From IMG/VR virus record IMGVR_UViG_3300044657_000462, positions 1 to 24,202 of that record: 24,202 nt of DNA; one strand, given 5' to 3'. Every line of letters starts with the position of its first letter. Within the stretch, counting starts at the first letter, position 1. The DNA is from a virus (Duplodnaviria; Caudoviricetes). The translations under genes were made by a program, and so were the position numbers. Below the pieces are notes generated by a model that ran no database searches, had not been told where the DNA came from, and saw only the letters and a list, made by a program, of their open reading frames with translations. Positions 4,367 through 24,137 of the stretch are shown here, one piece after another.

Positions 4367-5568
4367 TGTCGTTCTGGTTTGATAAGGCAGAAGCGCCGGA
4401 TGTCGCTCCGGCGCAACCAGCGCCTTATCACGGGATTGATATAGGCTTTTTCGAAGGCGTCGAGGCTTCTTACAGAACGACACGTCGCGCGGAAAATTCC
4501 GACGCTTATGACGTTCTGCTGGACGAAAAATTTCAACCCATAATCGACACGATTTCTGAGCGCACTGGCGCGAAGTTCATCAATCCTGGCAGCTTCATGG
4601 GCGCGTCTTCTTCTATGGGGCACATGGAAAGAAGACGCCAAGCCGAAATACAAAGAATTATGGGCGAGATAAAATCCAAGCCCGATGTCTATCCTGAGTA
4701 TCAGGATTTGACGATGGAACAGATTAACGAAGAGATAAAACAGACTGCGTTAGAAGAACTGAAGCGCGGCGAGAATATATCGCAGCGCACAACGACGATG
4801 GGTGAAATTGGCGCTTTCATAGGAACAATCGGCGGCAGCGTCGTAGATCAAAATTTCTTTGAAACTACGATTATGACAGCGCCCGCTCAATTCGCTTCAT
4901 TTGGTAAGAACCTTCTCCAACGCATCTTCTATAACAGTGCTATCTCCGCTGGGCAGGAAGCTATTCTCCAGCCGAAGGTCAAGCAGTGGTACGAATCCCT
5001 CGGCATAGATTACGGATGGGATGACGCTTTTACGCAAATCGCAGCGGCTGGTGCCTTCGGCGGGGCGTTACCTGTAGCTGGCAAAACATTCAGTCTGACG
5101 ACGGAGCAGATACGCAAAGGCGTCAAGGCTTATCAAGATTCGAACTTGATAAGCAAGCAGGACGGCGAATTGATAAAGGCCATTGCGGATGACGCTGATG
5201 TCATCGCGACTCGGCCAGACCCCGGCGTCTCTAGCGTAGACCATCTGGTTAAAGTCGAAGAAGCTATGGGCGATATCCAAGCGGGCCGGTTGCCCGGTTT
5301 GGACGAACCGGAGAACGCGCGGGTTTCCACGCCTACTGTTTTGACGCCAGAGGAGGAGGCCGTCGGGGCGCAACCGAAGATCGACCCGAATACCGGCATA
5401 GAGATGGAAGAATTGTCCGTTCTGCAAGAACGCTTTGAGGCGCTGCCGGACGATGCAATCATAGACGAAACGGTCGAAGGTGTGGAAGTTACCGCTGGCC
5501 CACTAAAAGCAGCATTGCGCCAAGACGACGCGATGATGGAACGCCTGAGAGGATGCGTAATTAGATGA
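4366..5568 (+). CDS. Internal virion/ejection protein with Gly/Ala-rich hydrophobic segments
   Basis: 400 aa; TAATG overlap; hydrophobic segments GEIGAFIGTIGG and IAAAGAFGGALPVAG; acidic C-terminal third. Confidence 0.7.
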   Translation: MSFWFDKAEAPDVAPAQPAPYHGIDIGFFEGVEASYRTTRRAENSDAYDVLLDEKFQPIIDTISERTGAKFINPGSFMGASSSMGHMERRRQAEIQRIMGEIKSKPDVYPEYQDLTMEQINEEIKQTALEELKRGENISQRTTTMGEIGAFIGTIGGSVVDQNFFETTIMTAPAQFASFGKNLLQRIFYNSAISAGQEAILQPKVKQWYESLGIDYGWDDAFTQIAAAGAFGGALPVAGKTFSLTTEQIRKGVKAYQDSNLISKQDGELIKAIADDADVIATRPDPGVSSVDHLVKVEEAMGDIQAGRLPGLDEPENARVSTPTVLTPEEEAVGAQPKIDPNTGIEMEELSVLQERFEALPDDAIIDETVEGVEVTAGPLKAALRQDDAMMERLRGCVIR

Positions 5569-8066
5569 GTTTCAAAGATTGCATTGATGAGGCTTTGAAC
5601 GAAGGCACTATCACGCAAGAACAGGCGGATGAGATGCGCCGCCGTTACGATGGTGCGTTTGCTGAGAACGCGCGCACTATGTCGTCCGACGAGGCTGCCG
5701 CACAAGCGAGCCGTGATGCGTTTGATTCTACGGAATATGAACTTGTGCTTCGCAAGCGCCGTCTTATCAAGCAGCATGACGCACAGAACGCACGTCTTCA
5801 GGAGGTTCTGGATATTGATGGCAAATATGTTGGCGAAGGTGTCAGCCATATTCTTGATCGTGACGGTAGTGGCCGTTACAAGCATCGCGATCTGGACAGC
5901 AGGCGCACTTCTTATGTTTCTCGCGCTCATGCGCGTATGGCTGGCGCAATTTCCAAGATGCGCCGCACGGGTATTTTGGGGCGCCAACGCCGTGGCGCGG
6001 AGGCATTGAATAACGATCTCGTCAAAGAGATATTCAATGTAGATAGTGGCAACGCGACTGCCAAGAATTTCGCGAAGGCTTGGGTCGAAACCGCAGAGAT
6101 GCTGCGCCAAGCCTTCAACAAAGCAGGTGGCGCGATTCCTAAACGCTCCGACTGGGGTATGCCGCAACAGCATGATAGGCGCTTGATCCGCGAAGCGGGG
6201 TTTGAAGAATGGCGTTCGTACATTCACGACCAACTTGACTGGGCGCGGATAATCAGCGAACGCACCGGGCGTATCATTCCTAAAGAACAACGTGAAGAAG
6301 TTTTGCAGGAGATATATGAAACGATTCTCACCAGCGGCATGAACAAGGTCAAGGAAACCAGTGTCGCAGGTAAGGGCCGCTCTCTCGCCCGTCGCCGTGC
6401 AGATCATCGTTTCCTCGTGTTCAAGAATCCAGAAGCGTGGCTGGCGTATCAGCAAAAATATGGTCAGGGCGATCCGTTCACGATTATGATGAACCATATC
6501 GAAACCATGTCGCGAGACATTGCCCTGCTTGAGACGCTTGGGCCTAACCCGAACAGCACGATATCGTTTCTGAAGACACAACTTCAGAAAAGAGCGGCTG
6601 AAGCTGACCTAAGCGATCCGAAGGGAAAGAATAACTCGCGTCTCAATAGGGAGATCAAGTCACTAGACGAGATATACGGCGATGTTTCTGGTTCTTCGTA
6701 TATCCCGGTGAACGAAACGATGGCGAAAGGGTTCGCCAGCTTGGGAGAATTGCTGGTTTCTGCCCAACTCGGAGCCGCTGCTATATCTGCGATATTCGGC
6801 GACGCGGCAACGACGCGCATCACGAAGCGCGTTGCCGGTATGCCCCACGCTGGCGTTATGACAAAGACCTTAAACACATTACTAGCCAGCAACCCGACGA
6901 AACAGGAACTTATCCGTGCCGGTCTCATCGCGGAGAACTGGTCGTCTGTTGCGTTTGGTCAGGCACGGTACATGGGCGACCTTATGGGCGCAGTAAGTAC
7001 GCAGCGCATCTCTAATTTCGTCATGAACGTCAGCGGTCTATCCCCAATTACCCAGGCAGAAAGATGGGCTTTCGGTCAATCCACGATGGGCTTCTTCTCC
7101 GATCAAGCCGCGAAGACGTTCGACCAACTTGACCCAAATGTGCAGCGTCTTCTCAAGACGTATGATATTGAGGCAGACGATTGGAATGCAATCCGCAAGA
7201 CGAAGAAGTACACATACAAGCGTGGCGAATGGTTGCGCCCGACTGACGTTTTCGAAGCTAACGAACTGGCAGGTCAGAAATATCTCGACCTGATACAGAT
7301 GGAAACGGATCGTGCTGTTCCTGTTTCCGGCCCGAGAGCAAGGGCAGCGGCACTTGGTAAAGAACCGCCCGGAACCATACGCGGTGATCTTTGGCGCAGT
7401 ATCGCCCAATACAAGACGTTTCCTATTGTCCTGTTCCAGAACAATCTAAAGCAGTTCCGGTATCTCGAAACCAGCAAGATGAGCCGCATCGGATATGCAA
7501 CAGAGTTCTTCATTCACGCTACTGTGATGGGCGGCATCGCGTTGCAGATTAGAGAAGTTCTGAAAGGTCGCGATCCGATGGCGATGTTTGGCGAGGATGG
7601 CGAGCCTAACTTGGCGTTCTGGGGTAAGGCAGCGTTGGCAGGCGGCAGTCTGTCGCTATTCGGTGACTTCCTGTTTGCTGACCATAATCGCTTCGGCCAC
7701 TCCCTTGGTGAGACAATCGCCGGTCCTCGCGTCAGCTTCTTAGGTGACCTTGCCCGCCTAACGGTCGGTAATGTCGAAGAAGTTATAGAGGGCAAGGACA
7801 CTAAATTTGGTTTGGAGGCGCTGAACTTCTTGGGCCGGTATGGGCCGGGTATGTCTATCTCGTACCTGCGTCTGGGGCTTGAGCGCCTCGTGCTTGATAA
7901 TCTACGCATGATGGTTGACCCCGACTATGAGCGCAGATTCCGCAGAAAAGTAAGGGACTTGGAGCGCAGAACGGGTCAGGATATGTGGTGGAAACCAGGC
8001 GAACAGCTTCCGAGTCGCGCTCCTGACTTGGAGGCTATCGCCCGCGACCTACCAAATAGAAACTAG
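5565..8066 (+). CDS. Large internal virion/DNA-ejection protein (BPP-1/epsilon15-like type)
   Basis: 833 aa; ATGA overlap; motifs FNKAGGAIPKRSDWGMPQQHD, HRFLVFKNPEAWLAYQQKYG and a C-terminal WWKPGEQLPSRAPDL, which I recognise from this class of podovirus inner-core proteins. Confidence 0.75.
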   Translation: MSFKDCIDEALNEGTITQEQADEMRRRYDGAFAENARTMSSDEAAAQASRDAFDSTEYELVLRKRRLIKQHDAQNARLQEVLDIDGKYVGEGVSHILDRDGSGRYKHRDLDSRRTSYVSRAHARMAGAISKMRRTGILGRQRRGAEALNNDLVKEIFNVDSGNATAKNFAKAWVETAEMLRQAFNKAGGAIPKRSDWGMPQQHDRRLIREAGFEEWRSYIHDQLDWARIISERTGRIIPKEQREEVLQEIYETILTSGMNKVKETSVAGKGRSLARRRADHRFLVFKNPEAWLAYQQKYGQGDPFTIMMNHIETMSRDIALLETLGPNPNSTISFLKTQLQKRAAEADLSDPKGKNNSRLNREIKSLDEIYGDVSGSSYIPVNETMAKGFASLGELLVSAQLGAAAISAIFGDAATTRITKRVAGMPHAGVMTKTLNTLLASNPTKQELIRAGLIAENWSSVAFGQARYMGDLMGAVSTQRISNFVMNVSGLSPITQAERWAFGQSTMGFFSDQAAKTFDQLDPNVQRLLKTYDIEADDWNAIRKTKKYTYKRGEWLRPTDVFEANELAGQKYLDLIQMETDRAVPVSGPRARAAALGKEPPGTIRGDLWRSIAQYKTFPIVLFQNNLKQFRYLETSKMSRIGYATEFFIHATVMGGIALQIREVLKGRDPMAMFGEDGEPNLAFWGKAALAGGSLSLFGDFLFADHNRFGHSLGETIAGPRVSFLGDLARLTVGNVEEVIEGKDTKFGLEALNFLGRYGPGMSISYLRLGLERLVLDNLRMMVDPDYERRFRRKVRDLERRTGQDMWWKPGEQLPSRAPDLEAIARDLPNRN

Positions 8067-13080: not shown

Positions 13081-13481
13081 TAGGTCTATTATCGGCTGTA
13101 CTGCCGTCTGTGATGGATGTGGCGGGAAGATTTCTCCCGGAGGACAAAGAGAAGCGAGCCGCTGCGGAGCGTGAGATTGAGGCGCAACTAACGATGCACC
13201 TCGCAAAGATTGACCTTGCTCAACTAGAGATAAACAAAGTTGAAGCGGCAAGCCGTTCTGTGTTTGTAAGCGGATGGCGTCCAGCTATCGGTTGGATGTG
13301 CGGGGGCGCAATGGGGCTTAACTTTATCGTGTTCCCGCTTGCATCGTTTGTGTTGGCGCAGACAGGACATCTCGTGGAACTGCCGACGCTTGACATGTCA
13401 CAGATGATGCCGGTGTTGATGGGGCTTTTAGGTCTTGGGGGATTAAGGACCGTGGAGAAAATTAAACAGGTCAGCAAATGA
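13077..13481 (+). CDS. Holin of 3TMs (GTA-release holin family)
   Basis: 134 aa with the signature QLEINKVEAASRSVFVSGWRPAIGW and LMGLLGLGGLRTVEK. Confidence 0.9.
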   Translation: MIGLLSAVLPSVMDVAGRFLPEDKEKRAAAEREIEAQLTMHLAKIDLAQLEINKVEAASRSVFVSGWRPAIGWMCGGAMGLNFIVFPLASFVLAQTGHLVELPTLDMSQMMPVLMGLLGLGGLRTVEKIKQVSK

Positions 13482-13924
13482 CATTTGAGCAAAGCCTGCG
13501 CCTAGTGCTGGAACAGGATGAAGGCATCGTCCATGAGGTTTACGAAGACCACCTCGGCAACCTGACGTGCGGCATCGGGCACCTTCTGACCCCGCAAGAC
13601 AGGGAATACGGCTGGCCGGTAGGCACTGCAATCAGCGAGGCGCGTGTCACGCAGTTATACAACCAGGATGTAGGCATCGCGCTGAAGGATGCCCGCTGGA
13701 TACATCCTGACTTTGACGACCTGCCGACTGAGGCTCGCATCGTCATTGCGTCCCTGTGCTTCCAGCTAGGTCTGCCGCGCTACCAGAAATTCAAGCTGCA
13801 TCATGCCGCTATCGAGGCTAGGGACTGGCGTGAGGCGGCAGCGCAGTTGCGTGATAGCAACCTGTACCGGCAGACAACGAACCGCACAGAGCGCCACGCT
13901 AGGCGACTGGAGAGCATTGTCTAA
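13478..13924 (+). CDS. Endolysin, T4-type lysozyme (GH24)
   Basis: 148 aa; DEG...VYEDHLGNLTCGIGHLL carries the E-x8-D-x5-T catalytic pattern; also DWREAAAQLRDS and QTTNR. Confidence 0.9.
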   Translation: MTFEQSLRLVLEQDEGIVHEVYEDHLGNLTCGIGHLLTPQDREYGWPVGTAISEARVTQLYNQDVGIALKDARWIHPDFDDLPTEARIVIASLCFQLGLPRYQKFKLHHAAIEARDWREAAAQLRDSNLYRQTTNRTERHARRLESIV

Positions 13925-14246
13925 CCAGAGTCATATCGACGGCGATGTGTGCGAAATGATCGCGACGGAGTATTTTCTGCGTTTAGGTTATTGGGTATTT
14001 CCCGCAGTACAGGGGTCCAGCCCTATCGATCTAGTCATCGTGAACGCAGAAGGTGTGCGGCTGATACAGGTTAAAAAGGATGCAAGCCGCGTCAATCCCG
14101 GTCGTAAAGTTGCATCGCGCATCCATCGCCGTCGCTCTGATTTACAAAAGGCGCTTGGCGTCGAAATGGTTTACGTAAACCCAGAGTCGCGATCTGTTTT
14201 TGTGTCGAACCATCAATATTACGCCAAGCGCAAGGGAAACAGTTAG
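13917..14246 (+). CDS. PD-(D/E)XK family endonuclease
   Basis: G-x3-E...GYWVF...SPIDLV...IQVK motif. Likely start is TTG 13917 after GGAG, overlapping the lysozyme end; the ORF track extends it to 13803. Confidence 0.7.
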   Translation: MSNQSHIDGDVCEMIATEYFLRLGYWVFPAVQGSSPIDLVIVNAEGVRLIQVKKDASRVNPGRKVASRIHRRRSDLQKALGVEMVYVNPESRSVFVSNHQYYAKRKGNS

Positions 14247-15205
14247 CGATCTGTTTCCTTTATCGTCAGAGTTTTCTGACGCACGGTGTATGCGTCCTTC
14301 GCAGGCACGACCTTCTCCGGCCTTGCGCTATAGCTACGCATCGGGCGACTGATTTGGTAAAGGCGATTTCCTACCAGCCCTTTCGCCTTCGGGTGTGCGC
14401 CCATGTACTCCATGATCGTGGCTTGCGCCGCGTCAATACGCGCTTCACTTGCGCCCTTGTCCGCCCTCGCCTCGACCAGTTCGCGCAGGGCTTCCGCCGC
14501 GTATTCGTTCTTCGACAGATCGAGTTCAGGCGCATCGTCATCGACCGTGCTGTACGCGTGTGCGGCGTCATCGCTGGACTCCACAGGGTAGAAATCCACA
14601 TCGGCCTTGCGGCGTTCAAAATCCACGACAGCTTCCGCGATCTGGCGTTGCACGTCGGGGTCAGCCTTGTATACGAAAAGGCGCAGGTCCAAGCCCTCAT
14701 ACAACGTCGCGATCACGCCTACCTGGTGGCCCGTACACATCATCTGCGCCTGCAACTGTAGCGGGCCGCGATCATGTGGCGGTCGGGTTTCCGGGCGTGA
14801 GCGTGTCGCCTTGCTCTCGACAATCACAGGCCCGGTCAGGTCTATCGTGTCGGCGTTGACGAGGAATATGCCCCTGTCCGCGTCCGTGCTGATCGTGCCT
14901 TGCCCTTCTCCCAAGCCGTCCAGGCTACACGCCATGCGTAGCGTCGGGTGCGGGAACGCGGCAGGGAAATCGTCGCGGAAATTTTCCAAGCCCAAACGCT
15001 CCGCCGCGACTTTCAGTATCACGGGTTCGAGTTCGTTACCCCAAAACGTCGCTTCGTTGCCCGTGAAGGTATCAACGAACGTCCCTTCCGCCGCCGCGAT
15101 GCAGCGCTCAAGCAACTGATTGCGCGTCATATACTTGCTGTAGCCAAGCAGCGCAGGCACAACGCTTGCGCTGATAATGTCGTCCGGTGTTAGTTTTCCA
15201 ACCAT
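14243..15205 (-). CDS. YqaJ-like (lambda exonuclease family) nuclease
   Basis: 320 aa with ISAS..PALLG.SKY, GNELEP, MACSLDG, VESK and LQLQAQMMCTG motifs; GGAGG RBS. Confidence 0.9.
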   Translation of the reverse strand: MVGKLTPDDIISASVVPALLGYSKYMTRNQLLERCIAAAEGTFVDTFTGNEATFWGNELEPVILKVAAERLGLENFRDDFPAAFPHPTLRMACSLDGLGEGQGTISTDADRGIFLVNADTIDLTGPVIVESKATRSRPETRPPHDRGPLQLQAQMMCTGHQVGVIATLYEGLDLRLFVYKADPDVQRQIAEAVVDFERRKADVDFYPVESSDDAAHAYSTVDDDAPELDLSKNEYAAEALRELVEARADKGASEARIDAAQATIMEYMGAHPKAKGLVGNRLYQISRPMRSYSARPEKVVPAKDAYTVRQKTLTIKETDR

Positions 15206-15206
15206 A

Positions 15207-15854
15207 TCATCCTCCGTGGTTTTCGATTAAGCGGGACACGCTGGCGGGATGCCAGCGCTTGCCCATTGCACTTGTAATGCCAGCCCCGTTAAGAGCGCCA
15301 GCGATTTGACGTAGACTTGCGCCCCTGTCCAGTAGCGGACGCGCGACCGATAGGGCTGTTTCGGCCACCCTGGCGGACGCTTCCAGGCGTTTGCGTTTGG
15401 TTGTCGCGCCGCCCTTCTCCGGGCAAGGGCAACCAAGTTTAACGCCGCGCGCCTTGGCGGCAGCAAGCGCCGCGCGGGTTCGTTCGCTGATTTTGCGCCC
15501 TTCCCATTCGGCGAATACCGCCGCCATTTGCAAAAACGTCCGGTCTGCTTCCGGCATGTCCGCCGCCATTATGGGAACGTTACTTTCCAATAGGCCCGAA
15601 ACGAAATGAAGTTTGCGCGCTAGGCGATCTAGCTTCGCAATTAACAGCGTTGCGCCCTTCTCCCGGCACGCGGCAAGGGCGCGCGCCAGTTCCGGTCGGT
15701 CGCTTTTCTTGCCGCTTTCTATTTCCGTGAACTCCGCGACGATACCGTCGCGCCACGGTTCAACGGCGGCGCGTTGCGCTTCTAATCCAAGGCCGGAACG
15801 CCCCTGCCGTTGCGTGCTGACGCGATAATACGCGACGTACTGCGGCGCGGTCAT
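15207..15854 (-). CDS. Serine recombinase (resolvase catalytic domain plus short C-terminal DNA-binding domain)
   Basis: 215 aa; YYRVSTQRQ (catalytic Ser), ESGKKSDRPEL, KLDRLAR, ERTRAALAAAKARGVKLG, and a C-terminal SLRQIAGALN..G..WHPASVSRLI. Confidence 0.93.
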   Translation of the reverse strand: MTAPQYVAYYRVSTQRQGRSGLGLEAQRAAVEPWRDGIVAEFTEIESGKKSDRPELARALAACREKGATLLIAKLDRLARKLHFVSGLLESNVPIMAADMPEADRTFLQMAAVFAEWEGRKISERTRAALAAAKARGVKLGCPCPEKGGATTKRKRLEASARVAETALSVARPLLDRGASLRQIAGALNGAGITSAMGKRWHPASVSRLIENHGG

Positions 15855-21046: not shown

Positions 21047-22903
21047 ATGAACACGAATATAGCCACATACATGGAGGAGATCGCGCGTCACTATTGGGGC
21101 GAGCCTAATCCGAAAGCGCGAGGACAAAAGCTGCGTTGGGGTACTCACAATGGGCGTGAGGTCGATCTACGCAAGGGCGTCTGGTTTGACTACGAATTGA
21201 ACAAGGGCGGTGGCGTGATTGATATGGTGCGCCATCATGAGGGTGCGTCGTTAAAGCCCATTCACGAAATTTTGGAACACAAATTCGGGATAACGCGAGA
21301 GGTTGAGGAGCGCATCCGCCCGAAAGAATGGCTGTCGAAGGTCTATGAGTATTATGACGAGGACGGCGTTCTGTCGTATCAGGTGCTTCGTTATGAGCCG
21401 AAGCGTTTTATCCAGCGGCATCCTGACGATAAGGGTGGCTGGGTATGGAATATGGATGGCGTCACGCCATTGCCGTACAACCTTCCGCTTATCGTTGGTC
21501 AGCCCAACCGCCCGATACTGGTCGTTGAGGGGGAGAAGTGTGCTGACGCGCTGGCGCAGGCAGGCTTTCTCGCGACGACGAGTCATGGCGGTGCGCGAAA
21601 GTGGCGCGAGGACTTGAATCGCTGGTTCGACGGTCGCGCCGTTGTGATGATCGCTGATAATGACGAAGCGGGCGAGGCGCACATGGATATGGTCGCGCAG
21701 AACCTGAACGGTGTCGCCAATCGCATGAAGCGCGTCGTGTTACCGAACCTTGCGCCGAAGGGCGATGTCGCGGATTGGCTTGCCGCGAATGGCAATGACG
21801 CGGAGCGGTTGAAGCACATCATGCGCTCTACGCCGTTGTATGAAGTGCCTGATGATCTACCGGAAGTTGAGCAGTCGGTGGATGAGGTGGAGGAAGAACA
21901 GGCGGACACGTTCGAGATATACACGCTGGCGCACTTGCGTCGTATGCCGCCGGTCGAGTGGTTGATCGACGGGATGCTGACGAAGCACGGGTTCAGTGTG
22001 CTGTACGGTGAGCCGGGTGCGGGTAAGTCGTTTCTTGCGCTGGATTGGGCGCTGTCTATCGCGCATGGTCGTGCGTGGCAGGGGCGTCATAACGTGACGG
22101 CTGGCAGCGTATTGTACATCGCTGGTGAGGGTGTCGGCGGATTGGGCAAGCGCATCAAGGGTTGGGAGTTCCATCACGAACTGCCCGGTGTGGATTGTCC
22201 GTTTTATGTTCTGCCGACGGCGGTACGTTTCCGCGAGCATGGCGATATTGAGAAGCTGATGCGGACGATTGATTCGCTGGGCCAGCGGTTCTCGCTGATC
22301 GTGATTGATACGGTCGCCCGTGCGCTTTTGGGCGGTGATGAGAACAGCGCGACGGACATGGGGTTGTTTGTCGATGCGTGTGACGCGATCAAGCGTCATG
22401 CCGGTTGCGCTGTACTGGCGGTTCACCATTCGGGCAAAGATGCGGCTCGCGGTATGCGTGGCAGCACGTCGCTGCTTGGCGGCGTGGACGCATCGCTTCG
22501 TGCCATGCAGGACGACGGCCTGATGACGATCCAGGTGGAGAAGCAAAAGGACGCGGAGCCTGCTGGCGATATAAACTTGCGTATGGTTAGCGTCGGGCTG
22601 ATAGGCGATCAGACGGTCGTGTTGCATGAGACGGACGAGCAGGGTACGCCGAAGCAACGGCGTGAGCGCTTGACCGGGCCGCAGAAGATAGCGTTGCAGG
22701 CGTTGACGAATCTTGCCGCGACGAAAGGGCCGAAGGTTTCGGTCGCGTCGTGGCATGAGGAACACAACGACAAGACGCCATCCGCGACACGGCAGTCACG
22801 CAATCGTGCGCGTGACGCTTTGCAGAACAAGGGCATCGTCGTGATCGACAAGGGGTTTGCGTGGGTGGACAACAGCGTACTGAAGGGGGATGACGGTGAA
22901 TGA
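21047..22903 (+). CDS. Primase-helicase (TOPRIM plus RecA-like AAA_25/RepA helicase)
   Basis: 618 aa. TOPRIM motifs VEGEKCAD, ADNDEAG and KGDVADW; Walker A GEPGAGKS, Walker B LIVIDT, VHHSGK and RGSTSL; short basic wHTH-like C-terminus. Confidence 0.93.
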   Translation: MNTNIATYMEEIARHYWGEPNPKARGQKLRWGTHNGREVDLRKGVWFDYELNKGGGVIDMVRHHEGASLKPIHEILEHKFGITREVEERIRPKEWLSKVYEYYDEDGVLSYQVLRYEPKRFIQRHPDDKGGWVWNMDGVTPLPYNLPLIVGQPNRPILVVEGEKCADALAQAGFLATTSHGGARKWREDLNRWFDGRAVVMIADNDEAGEAHMDMVAQNLNGVANRMKRVVLPNLAPKGDVADWLAANGNDAERLKHIMRSTPLYEVPDDLPEVEQSVDEVEEEQADTFEIYTLAHLRRMPPVEWLIDGMLTKHGFSVLYGEPGAGKSFLALDWALSIAHGRAWQGRHNVTAGSVLYIAGEGVGGLGKRIKGWEFHHELPGVDCPFYVLPTAVRFREHGDIEKLMRTIDSLGQRFSLIVIDTVARALLGGDENSATDMGLFVDACDAIKRHAGCAVLAVHHSGKDAARGMRGSTSLLGGVDASLRAMQDDGLMTIQVEKQKDAEPAGDINLRMVSVGLIGDQTVVLHETDEQGTPKQRRERLTGPQKIALQALTNLAATKGPKVSVASWHEEHNDKTPSATRQSRNRARDALQNKGIVVIDKGFAWVDNSVLKGDDGE

Positions 22904-23741
22904 GCAAGAAACCATCAACGTACTCGACCTTTTCAGCGGCATCGGAGGGTTCAGCCTCGGACTTGAACGAGCCGGACCTTTTCGGACAGTTGCCTTTTGT
23001 GAACAAGACGCCTTCTGCCAAGCCGTCCTCCGAAAGCACTGGCCCAATGTCTCAATCTACGATGATGTCAGAACCATCAACGCAGATGGATATCGAGGAA
23101 TTGACATCCTCTGCGGCGGGTTCCCTTGCCAGCCTTGGAGCGTCGCCGGGCAGCAGCGAGGCGCAGAAGATGACCGTGACCTCTGGCCGGTCATGGCTTC
23201 CCTTATTGAAGACATACGGCCTCGGTGGGTCATTGGCGAAAACGTGCGAGGCTTTATTAACGAAGCACTGGGCCTCCAACGCAGCCTTTCTGACTTGGAA
23301 AGCCTCGGCTACAGCGCCGTCCCATTTGTTATTCCAGCTTGCGCCGTCGATGCCCCGCACCGACGCGACAGAGTCTGGATTGTGGCCCACGCGGCGCAGT
23401 TGCAGCGCGATGGCTACGGAGAGCATTCAAAACCGCGTGAACGACAAGTTCCTGAATTTGGAAAGCGTGGTGGCGCGGGCGATGTGGCCGACGCCAACGA
23501 CAAGGGATCACAAGGGCGGGCGAAAGCCGGAAACGCTGACAGCAAGCGGACGCGGGGAGACGAACGGCTTAAACGATGCGGTGACCGTGAGGGACCAGCA
23601 TGGATCCCTGAACCCGACGTGGGTCGAGTGGCTAATGGGGTTCCCCGAAGGGTGGACCGACTTAAAGCCCTCGGAAATGCAGTCGTCCCGCAAGTCGTTG
23701 AGCAAATCGGAAAAGCAATCCTCGCAGGAGAAAACAGATGA
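22890..23741 (+). CDS. C5 cytosine DNA methyltransferase, catalytic chain
   Basis: Motif I DLFSGIGG, IV GGFPCQ, VI GENV, VIII HRRDRVWIVA and X LKALGNAVVPQV; no recognisable motif IX. Start is ATG 22890 or GTG 22896. Confidence 0.92.
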   Translation: MTVNEQETINVLDLFSGIGGFSLGLERAGPFRTVAFCEQDAFCQAVLRKHWPNVSIYDDVRTINADGYRGIDILCGGFPCQPWSVAGQQRGAEDDRDLWPVMASLIEDIRPRWVIGENVRGFINEALGLQRSLSDLESLGYSAVPFVIPACAVDAPHRRDRVWIVAHAAQLQRDGYGEHSKPRERQVPEFGKRGGAGDVADANDKGSQGRAKAGNADSKRTRGDERLKRCGDREGPAWIPEPDVGRVANGVPRRVDRLKALGNAVVPQVVEQIGKAILAGENR

Positions 23742-23748
23742 GGTGTAA
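22900..23748 (+). CDS. Overlapping +1-frame ORF: putative second methyltransferase chain (TRD plus motif IX)
   Basis: 282 aa open frame whose ATG overlaps the primase stop (ATGA). Carries LWPT and MWPTPTTRDHKG repeats and LNPTWVEWLMGFPEGWT, which resembles motif IX (consensus like RxLTxRExARLQGFP). Confidence 0.7.
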   Translation: MSKKPSTYSTFSAASEGSASDLNEPDLFGQLPFVNKTPSAKPSSESTGPMSQSTMMSEPSTQMDIEELTSSAAGSLASLGASPGSSEAQKMTVTSGRSWLPLLKTYGLGGSLAKTCEALLTKHWASNAAFLTWKASATAPSHLLFQLAPSMPRTDATESGLWPTRRSCSAMATESIQNRVNDKFLNLESVVARAMWPTPTTRDHKGGRKPETLTASGRGETNGLNDAVTVRDQHGSLNPTWVEWLMGFPEGWTDLKPSEMQSSRKSLSKSEKQSSQEKTDEV

Positions 23749-23884
23749 GGAATGCAACGGCGACGGCGAAGTCGAGCGCGAATATACGGTCGGCGGCTAT
23801 GACGGCGGACCGTGGATGGAATATCGCGTGAGATGGGTCGAGTGTGAAACGTGCAATGGAATAGGAGAGGTGGAAGATGAATAG
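23738..23884 (+). CDS. 48-aa DnaJ-type zinc-finger mini-protein
   Basis: MRCKECNGDGEV...VECETCNGIGEVEDE has two CxxCxGxG motifs. AGGAG RBS and ATGA overlap with the MTase stop; missing from the ORF track. Confidence 0.8.
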   Translation: MRCKECNGDGEVEREYTVGGYDGGPWMEYRVRWVECETCNGIGEVEDE

Positions 23885-24137
23885 GACTGAACTGCTGGAA
23901 AACGTCACCGTCGCGCTGTCTGATCGCGGCAGTGCGTATGGCGATGCGTCGGATAACTTCCAGCGCATCGCGGATATGTGGTCTGTTATACTGAGCCGCC
24001 GCGTAACAGTGAAAGAGGTCGCGCTTTGCATGTCAGCAGTTAAGATGGCAAGATTAGTCGAAACGCCAGATCACGCCGATAGTTGGATCGACCTGGCTGG
24101 GTATGCGGCGTTGGGAGTTGAAGTGCATGACCGATAA
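23877..24137 (+). CDS. DUF6378-like small phage protein
   Basis: 86 aa with DRGSAYGD..DNFQRIADMWS, VALCM..VKMARL and HADSWIDLAGYAALG. Confidence 0.85.
   Translation: MNRTELLENVTVALSDRGSAYGDASDNFQRIADMWSVILSRRVTVKEVALCMSAVKMARLVETPDHADSWIDLAGYAALGVEVHDR

Follow-up and report, generated by a model that had tools for sequence, protein, structure and literature searches.

Some C5-cytosine methyltransferases are divided between two polypeptides. M.EcoHK31I, whose target is YGGCCR, needs both of its chains, and in the parts of the publications covered its target-recognition domain (TRD) was placed in the alpha chain (PMC2836561, PMC3404938). M.AquI (target CYCGRG) is described, in the portion of the source considered, as two chains, the smaller of which holds motif IX together with a portion of the variable region (PMC3404938). 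Here we analyzed a 24,202-nucleotide (nt) stretch of a tailed virus (Duplodnaviria; Caudoviricetes; positions 1 to 24,202 of IMG/VR record IMGVR_UViG_3300044657_000462), hereafter the window, with regard to two reading frames that occupy nearly the same DNA after a primase/helicase gene. We consider it quite probable that these frames, whose starts lie 4 nt apart behind one Shine-Dalgarno sequence, are the catalytic (alpha, frame A) and predicted recognition (beta, frame B) chains of one heterodimeric C5-methyltransferase. A two-chain methylase with recognition modules in a second frame is a known kind of enzyme; the added finding is likely co-initiation from one site, at a twin codon in the window and probably by slippage in sister phages.

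Like M.EcoHK31I in the published description, which was the only basis of the comparison, the window enzyme has motifs I–VIII and X in alpha and motif IX in beta, in another frame of the same DNA (Table 1). A preliminary description of this DNA had pointed out two overlapping open reading frames (ORFs), at 22890–23741 (283 amino acids) and, in the +1 frame, at 22900–23748 (282 amino acids), and had read them as an M.EcoHK31I-like pair. Both ORFs were found as claimed, and the two-chain reading gained from the presence of motif IX in the +1 frame, from a switch of selection over the modules and from an alpha linker that was unconserved and unfolded in the model. However, in the text covered, M.EcoHK31I beta lies wholly inside alpha and has an internal start, whereas the window beta is open from 4 nt after the alpha start and ends 7 nt beyond alpha. 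Moreover, the TRD of M.EcoHK31I was assigned to alpha, whereas in the window the alpha linker is unconserved and TRD-like modules occur in beta. Also unlike the published system, no restriction enzyme was present among the window neighbours. Because the published TRD in alpha and the wholly nested beta were not seen here, we regard the window enzyme as a variant rather than a member of the M.EcoHK31I type. A plasmid match examined during this comparison was an MspI-family system. In contrast to M.AquI as described in the part covered, the window has motif X in alpha and its frames overlap almost entirely; the layout of M.AquI is instead like that of one relative, L056, which has motifs IX and X in beta.

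Table 1. Coordinates of the two-frame methylase and its start region in the window.
Feature	Position	Strand	Description
Primase/helicase gene	21047..22903	+	AAA_25 and primase PHROG matches; stop coupled to beta start
Shine-Dalgarno-like AAGGGGG	22883..22889	+	6 nt before GTG (alpha), 10 nt before ATG (beta); likely common to both
Twin start GTG-A-ATG	22896..22903	+	ATG overlaps TGA stop of primase/helicase
Alpha chain	22896..23741	+	281 amino acids counted from GTG; the ORF from ATG 22890 has 283
Alpha motifs	I ~22932; catalytic PC ~23124-23129; ENV 23238; VIII ~23364; X ~23673	+	
Alpha linker, residues 172-247	23409..23636	+	Unconserved, predicted disordered; no TRD core, no motif IX
Beta chain	22900..23748	+	+1 frame, 282 amino acids; likely small (recognition) domain; phrog_1008, stop depletion, conserved columns
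Beta N-terminal extension	22900..23061	+	Overlaps alpha motifs I-III; stop-free in twin-start and A9 loci, sequence unconserved
Beta middle segment T92-L147	23173..23340	+	Conserved; dual-coded with alpha motifs V-VII
Beta module 1	23383..23484	+	Begins WPTR (WPTP in homologues); TRD-like
Beta module 2	23485..23607	+	Begins WPTPTTRDHKG; TRD-like; 41 residues before motif IX
Motif IX in beta	23608..23664	+	Begins LNPTWVEWLMGFP, itself at 23608-23646; overlaps run-up to alpha motif X

For comparison, we used a family sample of 159 IMG/VR loci and one annotated phage region, that of Paenibacillus phage Leyra. Alpha was located in 151 of the 160 loci; 142 were complete and 102 were non-redundant at 90%. 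The window alpha contained the features of PF00145, namely motifs I, IV (PC), VI (ENV), VIII and X and the large-domain fold, but its match to this family covered residues 10–190 only; it also matched TIGR00675 and, over residues 2–281, phrog_363. Comparison with M.HhaI gave E 1e-19 over residues 9–172, and a fold match (E 3e-14) was limited to the large domain, M.HhaI being matched over ~175 columns. AlphaFold modelled the large domain and the helices of motif X with confidence, and residues 172–247 had a predicted local distance difference test (pLDDT) score <50; the model lacks a small domain. This region was also poorly conserved, with an amino-acid identity of only 0.13–0.31 over 23403–23582 in an alignment of 49 loci, and the PxPT core discussed below was absent from all alpha linkers (0/100). 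The PF00145 match, the linker analysis and the model agree with the earlier statement that frame A has motifs I, IV, VI, VIII and X but lacks IX. Without a TRD and motif IX, alpha does not belong to the single-chain C5 type. Its length in the family varied from 238 to 550 residues and tracked the number of beta modules, with both frames remaining open.

Several observations indicated that dual coding at this locus is real. Beta matched phrog_1008 (annotated as DNA methyltransferase) with E 5e-30. When the frame-A protein was held fixed and codons were drawn from the other genes of the phage, 9.0 stops were expected in the +1 frame of the window and none was present (P about 2e-5), whereas the +2 frame had 19 stops. 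The core of beta was stop-free in 46 of 46 non-redundant loci collected with alpha queries (0 stops vs 309 expected); this set leaves out L056 and L009 and is not fully blind to beta, since two of the six query peptides lay in the dual-coded part. As a control, a separate motif scan gave 41 methylase loci, 14 of which matched the in-frame motif IX pattern, and 13 of these single-chain enzymes carried 5–30 core +1 stops. The 14th match, L239, had no core +1 stops and was judged to be a spurious motif match. In the DNA alignment of the same 49 loci, synonymous and non-synonymous differences favoured alpha at 22923–23402 and 23643–23702, and favoured beta at 23463–23522 (3295/2232 vs 915/4380) and at 23583–23642 (3318/1273 vs 869/3265). 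Selection alternates between the two frames. Homologues had been expected, in the preliminary description, to keep both frames open and to show selection on the +1 segment, and this is what the 46 loci and the 49-locus alignment revealed.

Beta was also conserved outside the modules. Its middle segment contained the near-invariant residues T92, S95, G96, G110, L119, W124, S126, L131, T132, W133 and L147, was modelled as a helix-hairpin (pLDDT 60–75), and likely packs on the large domain. In relative L056, alpha (183 amino acids) stops after motif VIII and the modules, motif IX and motif X all occur in beta; L058, L068 and L070 have an alpha of similar length. The database families phrog_363 and phrog_1008 already cover both frames, and both nested frames are on record in the GenBank entry of phage Leyra (LEYRA_61 and LEYRA_62); Leyra beta starts internally. 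Both Leyra genes are tabled in PMC6070908, with no discussion of the nesting in the text covered. It had been stated that standard annotation would drop one frame; some GenBank records, such as that of Leyra, annotate both, and most of the family is half-annotated. The beta motif patterns matched an estimated ~1,700 IMG/VR stretches and ~630 stretches in species genomes, and the relatives in species genomes (best 80) were spread over many phyla; the nested two-frame layout is very common and not special to this phage.

With regard to motif IX, hhalign placed the LNPTWVEWLMGFP segment that had been singled out in the +1 frame against the motif IX found in 13 enzymes of the single-chain type (E 1.5e-4, probability 51). 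The two WPT(P) repeats reported previously were likewise present, as WPTR at 23383 and WPTP at 23485. Each begins a module of a type that recurs elsewhere in the family: module 1 in 12 other loci, with 40–79% identity of the alpha chains, and module 2 in 23 other loci (37–79%). Overall, 243 units from 99 loci formed 102 clusters; their order and number varied, and they were common to distant alpha chains. This organization resembles that of multispecific C5-methyltransferases of Bacillus phages, from Trautner's work as cited in PMC2413257; SPR and phi3T are examples. In the part of the literature covered, those enzymes carry, between motif VIII and motif IX, units that stand in tandem, can be exchanged and have a TL-like core, and the TL consensus of target-recognition domains includes P(STCA)PT(ILV)(TASV), located 10–50 residues before motif IX (PMC2413257). 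They are, however, single chains in one frame, whereas the window units lie in the second frame and share no more of the TL consensus than its PxPT core. This core was found in 67 of 100 beta chains, and its last copy was 10–50 residues before motif IX in 44 of 66. A similar PTLSARDYK was seen in L162, a single-chain enzyme. Taken with the alpha model and the layout of L056, these observations suggest that beta is likely the small domain of the enzyme and that the modules are probably TRDs, which would set its specificity. In L141, P0001, P0003 and P0004, additional WPTP/WRTP modules followed motif IX, outside the normal extent of beta.

Not all observations fit the assignment of recognition to beta, and the following weigh against it. 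The TRD of M.EcoHK31I was published as part of alpha; hhalign left the beta modules unaligned to single-chain enzymes; and the full TL consensus was present in just 1 of 100 beta chains. Beta modelled alone was poor (predicted template modelling score, pTM, 0.31) and gave no Foldseek match at E 0.001, no match to PDB by sequence or profile, and no relevant Pfam family (92 members searched). In addition, the loci are related, and locus counts are not independent events. There was also no NCBIfam family for beta, and a search of the ESM Atlas returned unnamed clusters only. The lack of any Pfam, PDB or fold match would suit frame B being an unrelated overprinted gene, with alpha a complete or inactive methylase by itself, but beta has precisely the motif that alpha lacks, also takes motif X where alpha is shortened (L056), and is absent from single-chain relatives; we consider this explanation very improbable. 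Equally improbable would be one fused polypeptide, a single-chain enzyme, made by a frameshift from alpha to beta after motif VIII. The order of motifs I–VIII, modules and IX is colinear, and in L338 a one-base change shortly ahead of motif IV shifts the frame and thereby links the N-terminal part of alpha to beta. However, L338 has lost the catalytic PC and looks like a broken copy or an assembly error. Furthermore, beta is conserved upstream of motif VIII (T92–L147), the alpha linker stays open throughout all its changes of length, and motif X is back in alpha while beta ends soon after IX, so that two shifts would be required. The same position of motif X had led the preliminary description to place a fusion behind the two-chain reading, and we agree. 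No fusion of a catalytic domain with the beta C-terminus was detected among 11 longer-protein matches in the 5 examined; these 5 were long beta chains. One of the long beta chains, P0009, had an insertion of ~150 residues, which we take to resemble a LAGLIDADG endonuclease.

We then considered how the heterodimer would be started. The AAGGGGG of the window forms a duplex of about -10.8 kcal/mol with a generic anti-Shine-Dalgarno sequence, and L005 has GGAGG at the matching position. Among the starts previously thought credible, GTG 22896 and ATG 22900 stood; ATG 22890 as the alpha start was rejected, as it abuts the G-run (spacing 0) and is missing in L005, where GTG 22896 is kept. When TGAATG was sought ahead of motif I, 119 loci were obtained, which is about all that the collection holds; after 66 matches that were too short or not methylase and 3 duplicates were dropped, 52 were used. 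The ATG was in the +1 frame in 35 of the 52, and all 35 had ATG, GTG or TTG, never CTG, four bases upstream in an open alpha frame. The N-segment (the first 50 codons of beta) was open in 28 of 32 dual loci with the twin start vs 3 of 14 dual loci with ATG in another phase; L121 and L129 had no N-segment stops against 4.7–4.9 expected. Similarly, when 99 loci were labelled by their start region alone (L009, L056 and L160 were left out), the N-segment was open in all 13 loci with nine A's at the start (A9, see below), in 13 of 15 twin-start loci and in 6 of the 71 others. The remaining 65 of these plain loci had +1 stops there; most family members likewise have such stops within their first 150 nt and start beta internally. 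In a quick tree, start designs were interleaved within the clade of the window, and twin starts also occurred on distant branches. Of the 80 best beta relatives in species genomes, 68 could be scored; a twin start combined with an open N-segment was seen in two of them and a G9 in one, while A9 was absent. The N-segment itself was not conserved (beta identity was 0.37–0.38 over 22923–23042, not above the +2 control frame). The N-terminal ~40 codons of beta are a passenger free of constraint, which likely serves to allow initiation of both chains at a single site.

The same heterodimer could also be made if the window beta started internally, at a Met codon at 23047–23065 or 23170, in which case ATG 22900 and the open first 50 codons would be incidental. 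Most of the evidence that weakens the twin-start reading also speaks for this alternative: openness of the N-segment in the window alone was not significant (P 0.21); in the closest full-length homologues, L002, L003 and L004 (70–79% identical), a stop ten bases inside motif I closes the +1 frame; and such stops were present within the first 150 nt in most plain loci. Against the twin start also stand +1 stops over this length in 4 of the 32 dual twin loci and the Met codons within the window beta, at 23047, 23062 and 23065. M.EcoHK31I beta, in the part of its description covered, withstands loss at its N-terminus and makes use of Met codons within the chain (PMC2836561). Because the window alone gives P 0.21, the significance of the N-segment rests on homologues. 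On the other hand, ATG 22900 is coupled to the primase stop and lies within Shine-Dalgarno range, and the twin start and the open N-segment co-occurred (28/32 vs 3/14), and did so in separate branches of the quick tree. We therefore regard the long beta as optional, in view of the P value and of the stop at +10 in L002–L004; internal starts may also serve, and both ATG 22900 and an internal start may be used. That the internal start alone operates, with the twin codon as a coincidence, seems improbable to us.

A different start design was observed in sister phages. In 13 of 102 non-redundant loci, exactly nine A's were found just before motif I, and the remainder had no A or T run >6 there. 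Scans for ≥7 A's in any phase gave 19 viral and 46 metagenome loci, which represented 37 distinct start regions; of these, 34 had A9, one had A10 and two were unrelated. In all 34 A9 regions a beta-frame start was present at -35 or -38 and often shared bases with the stop of the preceding gene, and in several regions an alpha-frame TAA stood at the beginning of the A-run. As alpha had no start within 48 nt in 28 of the 34 regions, the catalytic chain would need slippage there. The run occurred in all three codon phases (26, 6 and 2), while A/T9 was found only once in the other 57,650 bases of the 13 A9 loci. Alpha in the A9 loci was under purifying selection (5849 synonymous vs 1249 non-synonymous pairwise differences in 50 codons). 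In L284, the A-run was bridged without an insertion or deletion by contigs of 7 of 8 sequencing runs, and the eighth began too close to count; an assembly error behind A9 was rejected in view of these runs and of the fixed length in many assemblies. The A9 relatives show one mark of programmed transcriptional slippage genes: an A/T run of about nine is conserved where the frame changes, and a conserved product depends on that change. The gene upstream of many A9 loci ended with DDIPF or DLALPF on an otherwise Cys-rich ORF, and its stop often overlapped the beta ATG. These ends are similar to the acidic tail of single-strand binding proteins.

Bacterial RNA polymerase, in the part of the source covered, slips efficiently on nine As or Ts, and Thermus dnaX makes two subunits in this way (PMC5009743). 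In such productive slippage (the 9-T run of Thermus thermophilus dnaX, and Shigella; PMC5009743 and PMC3711429, each in part), nine identical bases give two products from one start, as proposed here for the A9 loci, and both dnaX products are subunits of one machine (PMC5009743). Unlike in dnaX, the A9 run lies at codons 3–6, the products share few residues, and the same DNA is read in two frames; slippage at A9 is proposed from the sequence. Transcriptional slippage is the mechanism that we somewhat favour for the A9 loci, in spite of several facts that count against it. In E. coli, slippage of RNA polymerase is weaker at runs of A than at runs of T, as far as the source was covered (PMC6260861). 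Six of the 34 A9 regions have GTG or TTG at -12 or -18 as a possible alpha start, the window itself has no A-run, and L321 (also L335 and L344) combines A9 with a +1 stop at +145. In the latter loci a slip would therefore control alpha only; the unslipped product would be a short peptide and beta would restart inside. A ribosomal -1 shift at A9 is possible but rather doubtful. Among the A9 loci we detected no conserved hairpin after the run and little Shine-Dalgarno pairing before it, and this lack of a stimulator is a weak argument against a stimulated ribosomal frameshift and no refutation. A DNA phase-variation switch, in which A9 would turn alpha off and A10 would turn it on instead of slippage in every infection, appears less likely still. 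It would account for L328, a further observation against slippage, which is 99.8% identical to L284 and has A10 and thereby an ATG in the alpha frame, although this may be a natural variant or an assembly error. It would also suit L422 (a metagenome-assembled genome of Oscillospiraceae) with a G9 run at the same place, between ATG and motif I and 48 nt before the latter, a possible phase-variation site; and since contigs drop rare variants, a minority A10 state is possible. Yet the supposed off state would hold for 34 of the 35 related start regions, and likewise for 7 of 8 sequencing runs, despite strong purifying selection on alpha, and the length is constant at nine while position and flanks vary. 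Any other mechanism seems very unlikely.

For the window, the explanation we prefer is that ribosomes that load where the primase gene ends would take either GTG 22896, to make alpha, or ATG 22900, to make beta. Such a choice at the twin codon would couple the amounts of the two chains and would oblige frame B to be open from its first codon. Beta would then provide the small domain missing from the alpha linker, and each module would act as a target-recognition unit whose gain, loss or exchange may shift or broaden specificity. In the A9 sister phages, one beta-frame start followed by nine A's at codons 3–6 would suffice: the unslipped message would yield beta and a one-base slip would yield alpha, most likely through an A added by RNA polymerase, otherwise through a -1 ribosomal shift. 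More generally, we lean, with some reservation, to the view that one start site feeds two whole frames and hence two subunits, either by a twin NTG-A-ATG or by an A9 slip that sets the ratio, and that the TRD cassette grows in one frame while the other pays with a floppy linker; the published placement of the M.EcoHK31I TRD in alpha may then be wrong for this family. Co-initiation would explain the near-total overlap and the supply of two subunits in fixed proportion in a large, mostly half-annotated family of phage methylases. In the A9 form, if true, slippage would be put to an uncommon use, since it would act right where a gene begins and select between two complete overlapping frames, with a catalytic chain that has no start codon; genes of this kind will be missed or cut short by gene callers. 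The start mechanism and the A9 variant are additions to the preliminary description. Within the literature searched, including the portions covered of PMC3711429, PMC5009743 and PMC6070908 but not most subscription papers or supplementary material such as the cluster tables of PMC3711429, neither the twin start nor the A9 site of this phage family was found described.

The methylase is located in a phage replication region, with the primase/helicase gene upstream and small ORFs downstream; a 48-amino-acid Cys-rich ORF and DUF6378 are among the neighbours, and virion, lysis and recombination genes lie elsewhere in the window. No cognate endonuclease was present among these neighbours, although the window ends 450 nt downstream. 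As no restriction enzyme adjoins the methylase, its likely job is to shield new phage DNA from host restriction, and it is probably an orphan anti-restriction enzyme of the phage. The species genomes had no matches to the A-run pattern. Additional features were noted in the window. Minus-strand antisense ORFs at 5133–6581 (482 amino acids), 21857–22765 (302) and 23414–24031 (205) lie over plus-strand genes and are probably shadows. A lysozyme ORF (13478–13924) overlaps a weakly PD-(D/E)XK-like ORF (13803–14246) by 122 nt within 13478–14246, and YqaJ-like recombinase and serine resolvase genes on the minus strand (14243–15854) face the lysis genes. A T7 gp14-like internal virion protein at 1451–2065 suggests a podovirus-like phage.

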